A stretch of 64,000 bases of DNA, from positions 96,001 to 160,000 of the forward strand of contig CAYSHM010000001.1 of the NCBI GenBank assembly GCA_964430885.1, given 5' to 3'. This stretch comes from an uncultured archaeon (GTDB taxonomy: Archaea; Thermoplasmatota; Penumbrarchaeia; JASLWR01). Below, piece by piece: positions 42,511 through 49,578 of the stretch; the first letter of the stretch is position 1; each line of letters starts with the position of its first letter. The position numbers and the translations under genes are program-made. The notes under the pieces were generated by a model. That model made no database searches, had not been told where the DNA came from, and worked only from the letters and a program-made list of their open reading frames with translations.

Positions 42511-42609
42511 TTAGATATAATCCGATCTGACAAATTTTATTTTATTATATTCTATAATTTTATTTTTTATCTCTAGCAGAGCGCACCTTCCATCTTTAGC
42601 TGCCCCTGG
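42511..42609 (-). pseudogene. C-terminal remnant of a metallophosphoesterase gene
   Basis: Manual translation [36 protein letters not shown] matches the (N)PG...G..A.. end typical of calcineurin-like YfcE/Icc phosphoesterases; AT-rich like the host DNA. Confidence 0.65.
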
Positions 42610-42808
42610 ACGGGGAAATGAGGCCGCCGATGATATTGAGCATGGTTGACTTCCCGCATCCGGATGGGCCCATGAGGGTTACGAACTCTCCCCCGGAGAC
42701 CTTGAGGTCAATGCCCTTGAGAACCTTGTTGATCCCTCCACCTGGGATGGAAAAATGCTTTTTCAGGTCTTGGCACTTGACCAGTAATTTCTTTTTCTTT
42801 ACGTTCAT
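42596..42808 (-). pseudogene. Truncated ABC transporter ATP-binding gene (N-terminus with Walker A only)
   Basis: [35 protein letters not shown], ending after 70 aa at the island junction. Confidence 0.85.
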
Positions 42809-42888
42809 TATATCACAGGTTCCTTCCCTTCAGTTTCATTGCTAATGGAAGCCAGAAGTATTATACTCGTATTTTTTGTTACCATCAT
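42808..42888 (-). pseudogene. 26-aa mini-ORF, probable internal-deletion remnant
   Basis: [35 protein letters not shown], TAATG overlap with the next start. Confidence 0.5.
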
Positions 42889-42906
42889 CCAACCTCCGAG
42901 CCTCAA

Positions 42907-43851
42907 TTACTGAACCTCTTTCCTCTTCAGCTTGAACACCGACAGCACCGCTAGGACCGCAGGGATCAGCGTCCAGATCAACCAGGAGGTCGCCTTCGAA
43001 TTATAGTTGGTCAAAGGAATCGAGGCCAGCTGGAAACCCTGGTCGGGCTCATCAAGGGACACTCCAAGGTCATGGGTCCCCGCGAACAAACCCATCTGCT
43101 CCTGGAACGTGGGAGTGAGATAGATCCCCCCAGCCTCGATGAACGAGATGAAGATATTCCCCAGATGGTAGCCAGGATCGAAATGATAGAGGCTATTATC
43201 CACGTAGAATTCGGAGAAACCCGACCTGATCATGTAGAAACCGAGATAGATAAATATTACCAGCCCGGCAGATATTATCATCACCAGCACGCGGCTCTTC
43301 GATATCGTGGAAAGAAAGAGAGGTATGGTGCCGAAGACCACCGCCACGAACAGAGTATACAGAAGCAGTATGGGCACATACGGGACCAGCTCCCACATGA
43401 CCGAGAGATGCGCACCCGAGACCGTGACAAATACGTATACCGATAAAATGATGGCGATCAGCTCCATTACCGCCACGAACACGAGATAAGCCAGGAACTT
43501 CCCGAGGATCACCTCCCACCTGCGAATGGGTCTGGTGATAAGCGACAACAGGGTGCCCCGGCTGTCCTCGCCGGCAATGAAATCCGAAACGGTCCATGCC
43601 GAAAAGAAAGAGAGCACTATTCCCCCGATCCAGAAATACGTGACAACGAAGAGCCGATCCTTGAGCATGAGGGCCTGGACCCCTACGGGATAGCTTGATA
43701 CATCGGCGCCGTAGGCGGTGATGATGGGAACGATGACGGCCACAGCGAGGAAGATTAGGGCTCTCGGTAATGTCAATAACTTCTGAAGTTCCCTTGCAGC
43801 GATTATGTGGAAGCGCGACCCGGATATCCCCGTTTCACTCATGGAACCCAC
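42907..43851 (-). CDS. ABC-2 type transporter permease
   Basis: IAARELQKL, IAGEDSRGTLLSLITRPIRRWEVILGKFLA, six hydrophobic helices. Confidence 0.9.
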   Translation of the reverse strand: MGSMSETGISGSRFHIIAARELQKLLTLPRALIFLAVAVIVPIITAYGADVSSYPVGVQALMLKDRLFVVTYFWIGGIVLSFFSAWTVSDFIAGEDSRGTLLSLITRPIRRWEVILGKFLAYLVFVAVMELIAIILSVYVFVTVSGAHLSVMWELVPYVPILLLYTLFVAVVFGTIPLFLSTISKSRVLVMIISAGLVIFIYLGFYMIRSGFSEFYVDNSLYHFDPGYHLGNIFISFIEAGGIYLTPTFQEQMGLFAGTHDLGVSLDEPDQGFQLASIPLTNYNSKATSWLIWTLIPAVLAVLSVFKLKRKEVQ

Positions 43852-44809
43852 CTCCTTTTCCGTTCATTTCCTTTCCATTTTCGGACACCGAAGTGAGGAA
43901 GATATCCTCTAGGGATACATCCCGTTTCTTGAAGGACATCATCACGGCCTTTGATTTGTAGACTATTTCGGTCACCGCTTCCTGAAGAACGTCGTCCTTG
44001 TCCGAGACCACCTGTATCCGATTTTCATCGTCGATCCAAGCACGCTTGACATAGGGAAGTCCCTTCAATTTCTTCAATATCGACTCGTTCTTCGACGTTT
44101 CCAGCAGGAAATGATTGCCGGCCAGTTGATCCTTGATGGCACCGACATCGTCCGAGAGTATTATCTCTCCCTTGTTTATGATGGTAACTGTATCGGCGAG
44201 TTTTTCAACTTCCCCCAGAATATGGCTGCTTACGAAAACAGTCAATCCGCGCTCACGGACAAGCTCCCGTATATGATCGATCATACCCGCGCGGCCCACG
44301 GGATCGAGATTTGCCGTGGGTTCGTCCAGGATTAGTATCTCGGGCTCGTGTATGAGCGCCTGGGCCAGGCCCGCTTTCTGTTTCATACCGGAACTGTAAT
44401 TATTGACCTTGCGGTCCGCCGCCTCCTCGAGCTTCAGCCACAGGATCAGCTCTTCTGCCTTTGTTGCGGCATCAGCCTTGCCGAGGTGCCCGAGCCTTCC
44501 CATGTAGATTAAATAATCATAGAGTGTCATGTCGAAGAACTTGGGATGCTCCGACACGTATCCGATGAGCGAGTTCGCCTTGACGGAGCCGGCCTTATAT
44601 CCCTTAATCGTAGCTGTTCCCCGGGTGATGCCGAGACCCCCCACAAGCATCTTTATTGTGGTTGTCTTCCCGGCGCCGTTGGGCCCCAGGAAGCCGTGGG
44701 CCTGTCCCGGAAGGACCTTGAAATCGATGCCGTTCACGGCCTTTACGATACTGGCTTCGCTACCGAAATGCTTGGTGAGGTTCTTGGCCTCGATCATGGG
44801 GTGGATCAT
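43835..44809 (-). CDS. ABC transporter ATP-binding protein (ABC-2/DUF4162-type)
   Basis: GPNGAGKTT, YSSGMKQK, LILDEPTANLDP, VSSHIL, SLEDIFL. Confidence 0.95.
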   Translation of the reverse strand: MIHPMIEAKNLTKHFGSEASIVKAVNGIDFKVLPGQAHGFLGPNGAGKTTTIKMLVGGLGITRGTATIKGYKAGSVKANSLIGYVSEHPKFFDMTLYDYLIYMGRLGHLGKADAATKAEELILWLKLEEAADRKVNNYSSGMKQKAGLAQALIHEPEILILDEPTANLDPVGRAGMIDHIRELVRERGLTVFVSSHILGEVEKLADTVTIINKGEIILSDDVGAIKDQLAGNHFLLETSKNESILKKLKGLPYVKRAWIDDENRIQVVSDKDDVLQEAVTEIVYKSKAVMMSFKKRDVSLEDIFLTSVSENGKEMNGKGGGFHE

Positions 44810-48438: not shown

Positions 48439-48439
48439 C

Positions 48440-49135
48440 TTATTCTCTTCCCTTCTTTGATGAAGTGGAATGTAAGGTATCGAGATGTGCCTGGAGAGAT
48501 TTCACCATCAGGTCAGTTCCACATTTCGGGCAGGTCGTCCAGTCGTCATCCTTGGATTTCCCCTTTGTGGCAGTACCTTTTAACATTATCCGGATCACCA
48601 CTGCAAGTACGATGATGGCGATGACCGCTCCGATAATGCTATACAGGACCCAGCTTTTCATTCCGCTCTCCTTTGCGGGATCGTCCTCTTCGGGCTTATC
48701 CTTATCAGTATCATCCCTGAGGGGCTCATCTTTCCCGTCATCCTCTCCCACAGTGAGTGTTCCGGTGACAGAGCCGCTAACGCTGCATTCCACGGTAACG
48801 GCCATCACATCTCCATCGGAAGCGGTCACATTGTAGGAATATACCACCATGCCCTTGCCCTTTTCATCGTCAACCTTCTGGCTCGTGTAGGTCTCATTCA
48901 GTACTTCGAGACGGTTCACGTGGATGGTCACTTTTTTGATATAATGGGTGTCGGGCTCTGCTGATTCATGGTCAATGTAGACTGTTACCATCCCCTCTTT
49001 GTAGGTCGGATATACCGCAGCCGGTGAATGGGCCCGGACATTCCCCGATATTGGGAGGAAAGCGAGAGCTGTTAGAAGCGCTGAAAATATCAGAGCCGAT
49101 AAGGCCATTGATGCAATGGTTCTATTCGTTTTCAT
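48440..49135 (-). CDS. Secreted SOR/desulfoferrodoxin-like domain, TM helix and C2H2-like zinc finger
   Basis: AHSP, YIDH, THYIKKV, ECSVSG; acidic linker; TM; CPKC...HLDTLH. Confidence 0.6.
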   Translation of the reverse strand: MKTNRTIASMALSALIFSALLTALAFLPISGNVRAHSPAAVYPTYKEGMVTVYIDHESAEPDTHYIKKVTIHVNRLEVLNETYTSQKVDDEKGKGMVVYSYNVTASDGDVMAVTVECSVSGSVTGTLTVGEDDGKDEPLRDDTDKDKPEEDDPAKESGMKSWVLYSIIGAVIAIIVLAVVIRIMLKGTATKGKSKDDDWTTCPKCGTDLMVKSLQAHLDTLHSTSSKKGRE

Positions 49136-49172
49136 TCCGTCATTCTCCTACATTTTCTGTTTCAAATTGATG

Positions 49173-49367
49173 TCAATCGTCAAAAATAAAAATCTTCTCG
49201 ATAGTGGTTTTGAAAACCCTAGCGATGTCATGGGCCAGTTTCAACGAGGGATTGTATTTTCCCTTCTCGAGATAGACTATTGTCTCCCGCCGCACTCCCA
49301 CCTTCAATGCGAGATCGCCCGGGGTCAGATCGAATCTCGCTCTGAGCTCTTTGATACGGGTTTTCAT
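49173..49367 (-). CDS. XRE/Cro-family HTH regulator
   Basis: [50 protein letters not shown]; start moved to ATG 49367. Confidence 0.92.
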
Positions 49368-49380
49368 AATTTCCATCCCA

Positions 49381-49578
49381 TCATTCTGTCGGATCCCCCC
49401 GGAAATGATGCCATATCCAGCATAGACCGAATATACAGAGCATGGCCAATGTCTGATAGAACACCAGCAGTGAGGGATCCATATTTTCATAATCGGATTT
49501 GAATAAATTAGAGTATTTCAGAATAAGATTTATTCCTCGTTGCGTGCCGTGAATATCCGAAGCTATTAACAATTTCAT
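49381..49578 (-). pseudogene. Chimeric ORF: metallophosphoesterase N-terminus fused to the C-terminus of a membrane protein
   Basis: MKLLIASDIHG (DxH motif) ...KSD, then [33 protein letters not shown], a TM plus RGD end like DUF2178-type genes found before XRE regulators. Confidence 0.7.

Follow-up and report, generated by a model that had tools for sequence, protein, structure and literature searches.

Viruses, plasmids or integrative elements are behind most of the gene transfer that is well documented in archaea. Integrase-mediated islands and archaeal elements of the SSV type, for example, leave a compositionally distinct foreign block between two gene halves, and a block of this appearance is also found in the 64,000-nucleotide stretch analyzed here, referred to below as the window (positions 96,001 to 160,000 of contig CAYSHM010000001.1, assembly GCA_964430885.1, from an uncultured archaeon of the Thermoplasmatota). 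An insert of about 6.9 kb separates the two ends of a single metallophosphoesterase gene in this window. In contrast to integrase-mediated islands and SSV-type elements, there is no integrase, att repeat or tRNA target at this locus, and the split gene is a phosphoesterase rather than an integrase. It additionally differs from site-specific integration, which keeps its target complete, in that some 0.48 kb of the target is missing. With a probability of roughly three in four, we favor the explanation that a linear chromosomal piece from a relative in the same family was joined in by illegitimate recombination at both ends without a mobile-element enzyme.

A comparable process is double illegitimate recombination (DIR), which Hulter and Wackernagel are said to have described in 2008 during natural transformation of Acinetobacter baylyi. 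As in DIR, foreign DNA devoid of a homologous anchor may have been joined through a short microhomology on either side, the recipient DNA between the joints being lost and no mobile-element enzyme being involved. However, DIR concerns a transformable bacterium in the laboratory, whereas the event described here occurred naturally and became fixed in an uncultured archaeon, and its entry route and enzymes are putative. Short-patch DIR (SPDIR) differs further in scale, as the insert of 6.9 kb is far longer than the patches reported for it (bioRxiv 10.1101/2023.11.22.568220). Among archaea that lack Ku, Haloferax volcanii and Sulfolobus use microhomology-mediated end joining (MMEJ), which is described as a repair of chromosomal breaks that gives deletions (PMC7776575), while capture of a foreign fragment between two joints is what we propose here. 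Finally, microhomology is enriched at natural breakpoints of horizontal gene transfer (HGT) in human gut bacteria, with a mean of 3.1 bp versus a background of 1.6 bp, and the transferred segments have paired insertion and deletion breakpoints as they do here (LocalHGT, PMC11317153). The latter is a statistical pattern in gut bacteria, in contrast to a single archaeal case resolved gene by gene. The locus is a natural and well-resolved instance of a process of a known kind rather than a new mechanism.

A split host gene and an insert from the same archaeal family

The source genome, G000, is a metagenome-assembled draft of 3.13 Mb in 44 contigs with 43.5% GC and a completeness of 91.6%. An earlier note on this stretch, made from the sequence alone, had read an open reading frame (ORF) at 49578 and a frame about 6.9 kb downstream as the two ends of a phosphoesterase, and comparison with related genomes bears this out. 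The minus-strand ORF from 49578 starts MKLLIASDIHGTQRG and matches residues 1-19 of an intact metallophosphoesterase of 216 amino acids (aa) in genome G001 (BLASTP E 2e-7), while the frame at 42609..42511, which ends ...RSDYI-stop, matches residues 185-199 of the same orthologue (E 1e-6). Intact calcineurin-like metallophosphoesterases of 214-216 aa (Pfam PF12850, PF00149) are present in both G001 and G003, where each is the next gene after the orthologue of the CARDB surface-protein gene found ahead of the N-terminal fragment in the window. The 262-aa membrane gene on the upstream side of the CARDB orthologue is also kept in G001. This synteny is seen in two of three genomes of the same family, with G002 having a different gene after its CARDB orthologue. 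The two fragments are the start and end of one family and of one syntenic gene, a calcineurin-like metallophosphoesterase of about 216 aa.

Residues ~23-184 of the orthologue have no counterpart in the window, which means that about 160 codons are gone and that the deletion of the host's catalytic core, also proposed earlier, is real. The N-terminal fragment keeps only metal-binding motif I (DxH, present as SDIHG), as the missing part is the one that contains the GD, GN(C/H)D and histidine motifs in the phosphoesterases of G001 and G003. Loss of motifs II-V killed the gene. No second orthologue was found with this query in the 91.6% complete source genome, and more distant members of the metallophosphoesterase superfamily are present there.

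The insert and the dead gene run in the same direction, with all genes on the minus strand, and the insert is fully occupied by five intact genes and three gene remnants that leave no space for another gene. As the earlier note had it, the insert begins inside a membrane-protein gene and ends inside an ABC ATPase gene, both of which are truncated, and its DNA is GC-richer than its surroundings. GC content is 50.5% over 42611-49503 versus 39.1% and 38.7% in the flanks, and 5-kb windows of G000 that are as GC-rich as the insert stand around the 98th-99th percentile. The tetranucleotide distance of the insert to the G000 mean falls at the 97.4th percentile (844 windows of 6.9 kb), and its composition correlates with the G003 flanks at r 0.85 versus r 0.67 with the G000 mean. 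The compositional shift is clear.

The foreign origin of the insert is also seen in a DNA search that covered 37 genomes of the class (G000 and 36 others). Near-full-length matches to the insert (window 42863-49515, ~6.6 kb, blastn) occur in G001:C158 at 80.5-81.5% nucleotide (nt) identity and in G003:C45 at 78-80%. For the flanks of the insert (20 kb on one side and 14 kb on the other), identity to these genomes is only 63-71% nt in protein-coding parts, where there is a match at all, and only the flanking tRNA genes exceed this level against G001 and G003. Within G000 itself the insert has only short paralogous DNA matches of 68-75% identity. Synonymous divergence (dS) from G001 is 0.83, 0.80, 0.80 and 0.53 for four insert genes with dN/dS of 0.07-0.28, whereas two adjacent host genes with syntenic G001 orthologues are saturated at a proportion of synonymous differences (pS) of 0.80. 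The insert therefore parted from the G001 copy long after the genomes parted, which indicates horizontal transfer. Protein identities to G001 are 76% over 231 codons for the 231-aa membrane protein (dN/dS 0.28), 80% for the 1210-aa beta-propeller protein (dS 0.80, dN/dS 0.15), 89% for the DrrA-like ABC ATPase (dN/dS 0.07) and 81% for the ABC-2 permease (dN/dS 0.13).

The setting of the operon indicates the direction of transfer. A rhodanese gene and a 996-aa gene flank the left end of the operon in both G001 and G003 and G001 has a full-length first (membrane) gene of 148 aa, whereas in G000 both end genes are cut and the insert interrupts a conserved gene. The insert is foreign to G000, but its source lies within the same archaeal family and not in a distant lineage, in line with the earlier claim of foreign DNA. 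A donor-type operon, as that note expected, is complete in two same-family genomes at 78-82% nt identity, and it resembles the insert far more than the host's own genes resemble their counterparts there. The donor is probably closer to genus g2, to which G001 and G003 belong, than the host is. A closer donor was not found in a metagenome-contig search with the permease, where the best match, L031, has 81% aa identity. The structure and blastn figures of L031 are the same as those of the G001 locus, and it was rejected as an independent or closer donor. Additionally, the truncated ABC gene has no near-identical full-length homologue in a set of 5.8 billion proteins searched with the ABC fragment, the best being 80-84% aa identical, and a genome-contig search with the 70-aa ABC fragment gave generic bacterial ABC ATPases with, among the matches listed, a best identity of 50% over most of the query and up to 71% over shorter segments.

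The two junctions

Five sequencing runs contain part of the stretch, among them X5, from another study, with 5% of the sampled words. Support for the junctions comes from per-run Logan contigs of the other four (X1-X4), all from one study. In X1, one contig of 34.7 kb covers 41500-50500 with 0 differences. In X2 the left joint is spanned by record 9 and the right joint by record 15, and contig depths are similar across the left flank (17.5), insert (15.5) and right flank (18.9). X3, a sample not flagged as a possible source, has records 18 (42390-42705) and 22 (49379-49704) that span the left and right joints with 0 differences, while no listed piece of X4 spans either joint. The junctions are real, as contigs assembled separately from three runs bridge them. 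No joint that skips the insert was seen in the contigs of X1-X4, although contigs could miss a rare insert-free allele. The only listed joint, 44368-44665 (side 23), was considered as a sign of an empty site and rejected, as it lies in a conserved ABC ATPase region and comes from other organisms.

A further contig of X2, record 16, is 481 nt long with a depth of 3.5, shares only window 49453-49503 (51 bases, 2 differences) and diverges at 49503. This contig may represent a donor-like lineage with an uncut membrane gene that co-occurs in the same water sample. A co-occurring, GC-richer relative of this sort raises the question of whether its DNA was simply stitched into the host contig during assembly or binning, the more so as the branch falls exactly at 49503 and G000 is a metagenome-assembled draft in 44 contigs. 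We regard such an artefact as extremely improbable. Two chimeric joints would both need to return to the same 650-bp gene, the left joint shares at most 12 nt as compared to overlaps of ~30 nt between adjoining Logan contigs, and separate assemblies of three runs repeat the joints with 0 differences and with even depths in host and insert.

At the left joint, host relatives read AATCCCGGGGCTGC (NPGAA) and the donor-type paralogue in G000:C13 reads TCGAGCGGCATC. The earlier observation that a 12-mer here can be read both as donor SRGS and as host NPGAA is correct, as it is present at 42610..42599 in both frames. What it says about the length of the match is less certain. The motif is [P/S/H]-P-[S/T]-[S/G]-G-x-V-E-V in the ten full-length ABC homologues closest to it, with Pro66 and Gly69 invariant, and Arg68, which is read as AGG in the window, occurs in none of the ten. 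The conserved host NPGAA and donor P-S-x-G motifs overlap on the same bases, which supports a joint at a microhomology. Since the Arg codon AGG is unusual, its last base may already be host, in which case the perfect match would be 5 nt (TCCAG). The left microhomology may thus measure 5-12 nt, with 12 an upper bound and 5 (TCCAG) the conservative figure. A 12-nt microhomology, as first proposed, is therefore retained only as an overlap of 5-12 nt that family conservation supports; whether the donor ABC gene carries the same 12-mer was compared at the level of the family, where the motif overlap agrees and the Arg codon does not.

The right joint is placed to ~13 nt by the ends of donor similarity at 49515 (blastn) and 49503 (tblastn). 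The membrane protein of G001 reads ...FFKSDYQEIDPSLLVF and ends ...GDPVE, for which the window counterpart is ...GDPTE. The FKSD codons are therefore donor sequence or common to both parents. The phosphoesterase N-terminus does start at 49578 as supposed, but it had been taken to run through KSD, whereas FKSD matches the donor membrane gene and the junction lies at ~49503-49515. The host start codon is fused in frame to the tail of the donor membrane gene, creating a chimeric ORF of 65 aa (49578..49381).

Neither joint contains extended homology, as both ends of the insert lie inside genes and, at each end, donor similarity gives way to host similarity within 12-13 nt. This bears on whether the DNA could have entered by homologous or homology-facilitated recombination, a possible source being a close relative in which the insertion was already present. 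A one-sided homologous anchor is reported by de Vries and Wackernagel (2002) to greatly raise the integration of foreign DNA in transformable bacteria, and if a sister strain were the first recipient then ordinary homologous spread of the allele would be invisible here. Nevertheless, there is no anchor, with donor similarity stopping within a few bases of host similarity at both ends, and in G001 the operon (contig C158) does not lie next to the phosphoesterase (contig C147). The original event would still have to be illegitimate even if the allele had later spread by homology. We consider a homologous route highly unlikely.

Illegitimate joining at short matches also fits what is seen of end-joining functions. 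Ku was not found in the 91.6% complete G000 by a search that was positive in the B. subtilis control, so that classical Ku-dependent end joining is without support in this organism. In an archaeon without Ku, MMEJ or an annealing pathway is the most plausible joining route. Overlapping host and donor bases together with a deletion at the left joint are the outcome expected of MMEJ in archaea without Ku (PMC7776575).

Mobile-element hallmarks and the order of events

We found no integrase or transposase Pfam match in 35 of the 36 non-overlapping ORFs of at least 90 aa in the 64-kb window, or in four short junction ORFs and fragments; the remaining ORF (49116-49502, plus strand) overlaps the helix-turn-helix (HTH) gene on the opposite strand. 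The tRNA genes in the window are located at 19563, 35927, 57398 and 58710, with the two nearest to the insert (35927 and 57398) at a distance of over 6 kb. The ends of the insert are not linked by any direct or inverted repeat, and there are no att sites, terminal inverted repeats or target-site duplications. The longest k-mer common to both junction zones is 6, for which the null median is 7, and the target shows a deletion, not a duplication. The locus has the features of neither an integrase-type genomic island or integrative element nor an insertion sequence (IS) or composite transposon. That no integrase, IS or integrative element was involved, as the earlier note had inferred, is supported by this absence of a recombinase, transposase, tRNA target, att-like repeat or terminal inverted repeat. 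Archaeal-type genes that the window carries include those for Topo VI subunit A and PTH2.

A longer history could nonetheless be written for the same DNA. A longer foreign segment, either an island with an integrase or a larger chromosomal block, may have been inserted and later trimmed on both sides by deletions that removed mobility genes, operon ends and the middle of the host gene, so that the present junctions would be deletion scars. Mid-gene deletions do occur in this operon. For example, DNA similarity of the insert to G001 stops at 42863, and the insert holds only a 26-codon remnant of an FG-GAP gene, of which G003 has the whole (699 aa) at this operon position (L029 4210..6309; PF13517). 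The remnant is an older internal deletion scar. In G001:C158 (L028 7650-7810, minus strand) the FG-GAP signal peptide, some 29 codons of it, is joined directly to the Walker-A region of a MacB-like ABC ATPase. A TAA stands in frame 13 codons later, and the ATPase part that remains has 257 aa and a zinc-ribbon tail. This fusion is an independent mid-gene deletion in the same operon. A deletion flanked by microhomology would, additionally, leave the same junction signature as the one described above. Set against these points, the insert follows the gene order of a chromosomal operon without any mobile-element gene, next to which G001 and G003 have a conserved neighbor block on one side, nothing element-like is left on either side within 64 kb, and three events are needed where one suffices. 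For these reasons we hold insertion followed by trimming to be unlikely, although less so than either an artefact or a homologous route.

Returning to the favored explanation, linear chromosomal DNA of a same-family archaeon would have entered the cell, for example by transformation plus end joining. The 6.9-kb piece would be an arbitrary cut from a larger donor operon with the order DUF2178-like membrane gene, XRE regulator, zinc-ribbon membrane protein, beta-propeller protein, ABC-2 ATPase and permease, and MacB-like ATPase, in which both end genes were truncated. Its joining would have replaced ~160 codons (~0.48 kb) of the ~216-aa phosphoesterase gene, with insertion and deletion probably constituting a single event and with both joints likely formed at short matches by MMEJ or an annealing pathway. 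Microhomology-mediated illegitimate recombination, as the earlier note called it, stands with respect to the lack of an anchor, the lack of a mobile element and the loss of target DNA, and needs to be revised in the length of the microhomology and the position of the right joint.

Several points weigh against this explanation. As mid-gene deletions occur in this operon, secondary deletion may account for the present joints. The perfect match on the left may extend over as little as 5 nt, and the right joint is placed no finer than ~13 nt. Neither a near-identical donor nor an uninterrupted host allele was found, the best donor relatives being ~80% nt identical and the ABC homologues 84% aa identical. 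All of the bridging evidence consists of Logan contigs rather than raw reads and is from one study in which X1 and X2 may be the source samples. Finally, the orthologue of the operon-flanking 996-aa gene is located in G000:C9:99670-102606, ending ~100 bp from the contig end. The assembly breaks where the native operon site would be, and a second, unassembled copy of the operon in G000 is therefore conceivable.

Features of the insert, related loci and significance

Table 1. Gene fragments, intact genes and junctions at the interrupted phosphoesterase locus (window coordinates)
Feature	Coordinates	Strand	Basis
Host metallophosphoesterase 5' fragment, ~22 codons	49511..49578	-	BLASTP match to G001 orthologue; synteny; AT-rich like host
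Right junction zone, host-to-donor crossover	49503..49515		Ends of donor similarity in blastn and tblastn
3' end (last ~41 codons and stop) of donor DUF2178-like membrane gene	49381..49503	-	75% aa identity to residues 109-148 of 148-aa G001 protein
XRE-family HTH regulator, 64 aa from MKTRIKEL, intact	49173..49367	-	PF01381 HTH_3 E 6e-11; start set by G001/G003 alignment
Membrane protein with C-terminal zinc ribbon, 231 aa, intact	48440..49135	-	ORF; weak zinc-ribbon Pfam matches
Beta-propeller surface protein (FG-GAP/PQQ-like), 1210 aa, C-terminal membrane anchor, intact	44806..48438	-	PF23727, PF13360, PF13517, PF01839
ABC transporter ATPase, DrrA-like, 324 aa, intact	43835..44809	-	PF00005 E 4e-26
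ABC-2 family permease, 314 aa, intact	42907..43851	-	PF12679 E 2e-23
26-codon remnant of the signal-peptide end of the FG-GAP gene	42808..42888	-	Read in sequence; compared with complete gene in G003
First 70 codons of MacB/LolD-like ABC ATPase (through Walker A)	42599..42808	-	PF00005 positions 1-41
Left junction 12-mer TCCAGGGGCAGC	42610..42599		S-R-G-S in donor frame, (N)PGAA in host frame
Host metallophosphoesterase 3' fragment, 32 codons and native stop	42511..42609	-	BLASTP match to G001 orthologue; DNA alignment

The truncated MacB/LolD-like ATPase (Table 1) is ended by a host-derived TAA and is 74-84% identical to the N-termini of ten full-length homologues of 233-251 aa. The 1210-aa beta-propeller protein is without ~600-700 nt near its 3' end (window 44822-44908) as compared to G001 (1417 aa; L028 9755-10477) and G003 (L029 8257-8855), with the frame still open and the membrane anchor kept. 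G000 contains additional loci that resemble parts of the insert. A complete paralogous operon at G000:C13:43387-46586 (L003), 73-75% nt identical to the two ends of the insert, encodes in order a 163-aa DUF2178 membrane protein, an 80-aa XRE HTH protein, a 172-aa membrane protein, a 238-aa MacB-like ATPase and a large permease, and displays the donor-type end genes as they are when whole; the C13 paralogue of the DUF2178-like membrane gene matches PF09946 DUF2178. There is also a distant native paralogue of the insert core at G000:C7:7666-16970, with aa identities of 28-35% for the beta-propeller, 54% for the ABC ATPase and 38% for the ABC-2 permease. The acquired genes therefore duplicate a type of function that the host already had. 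Beyond these loci, contigs C18, C16, C34 and C26 of G000 have a GC content of 50-55% over their whole length or long stretches versus 43.5% for the genome and are its strongest tetranucleotide outliers; they could be further foreign islands or binning contamination.

Given that the acquired genes have the orientation of the dead gene, and that the start codon of the latter is fused in frame to the insert, the old phosphoesterase promoter could drive transcription of the five intact genes. A reading by eye of the region upstream of the insert for a promoter gave nothing reliable.

A broader proposal is that marine Thermoplasmatota of this family swap pieces of chromosomal operons without plasmids, viruses or integrases by microhomology-mediated joining, that this operon is a recurrent substrate and that promoter capture aided survival of the insert. 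We put this forward tentatively, as a possibility that is more doubtful than not. If true, three separate illegitimate joints in three genomes (the insertion, the FG-GAP remnant inside of it and the G001 fusion) would mark the operon as a recurrent substrate, and landing in frame and in the same orientation would have allowed five intact acquired genes to be expressed at once.

With both junctions, the lost target DNA and the donor lineage all readable, the locus has a completeness that is uncommon among uncultured marine archaea. A 6.9-kb arbitrary slice of a relative's chromosome has become fixed without mobility genes at the cost of one dispensable enzyme, bringing with it a giant surface protein, an exporter and a regulator that is intact. 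The locus provides a worked example for methods that detect HGT and for the idea that repair of the end-joining type limits or enables gene transfer in archaea.

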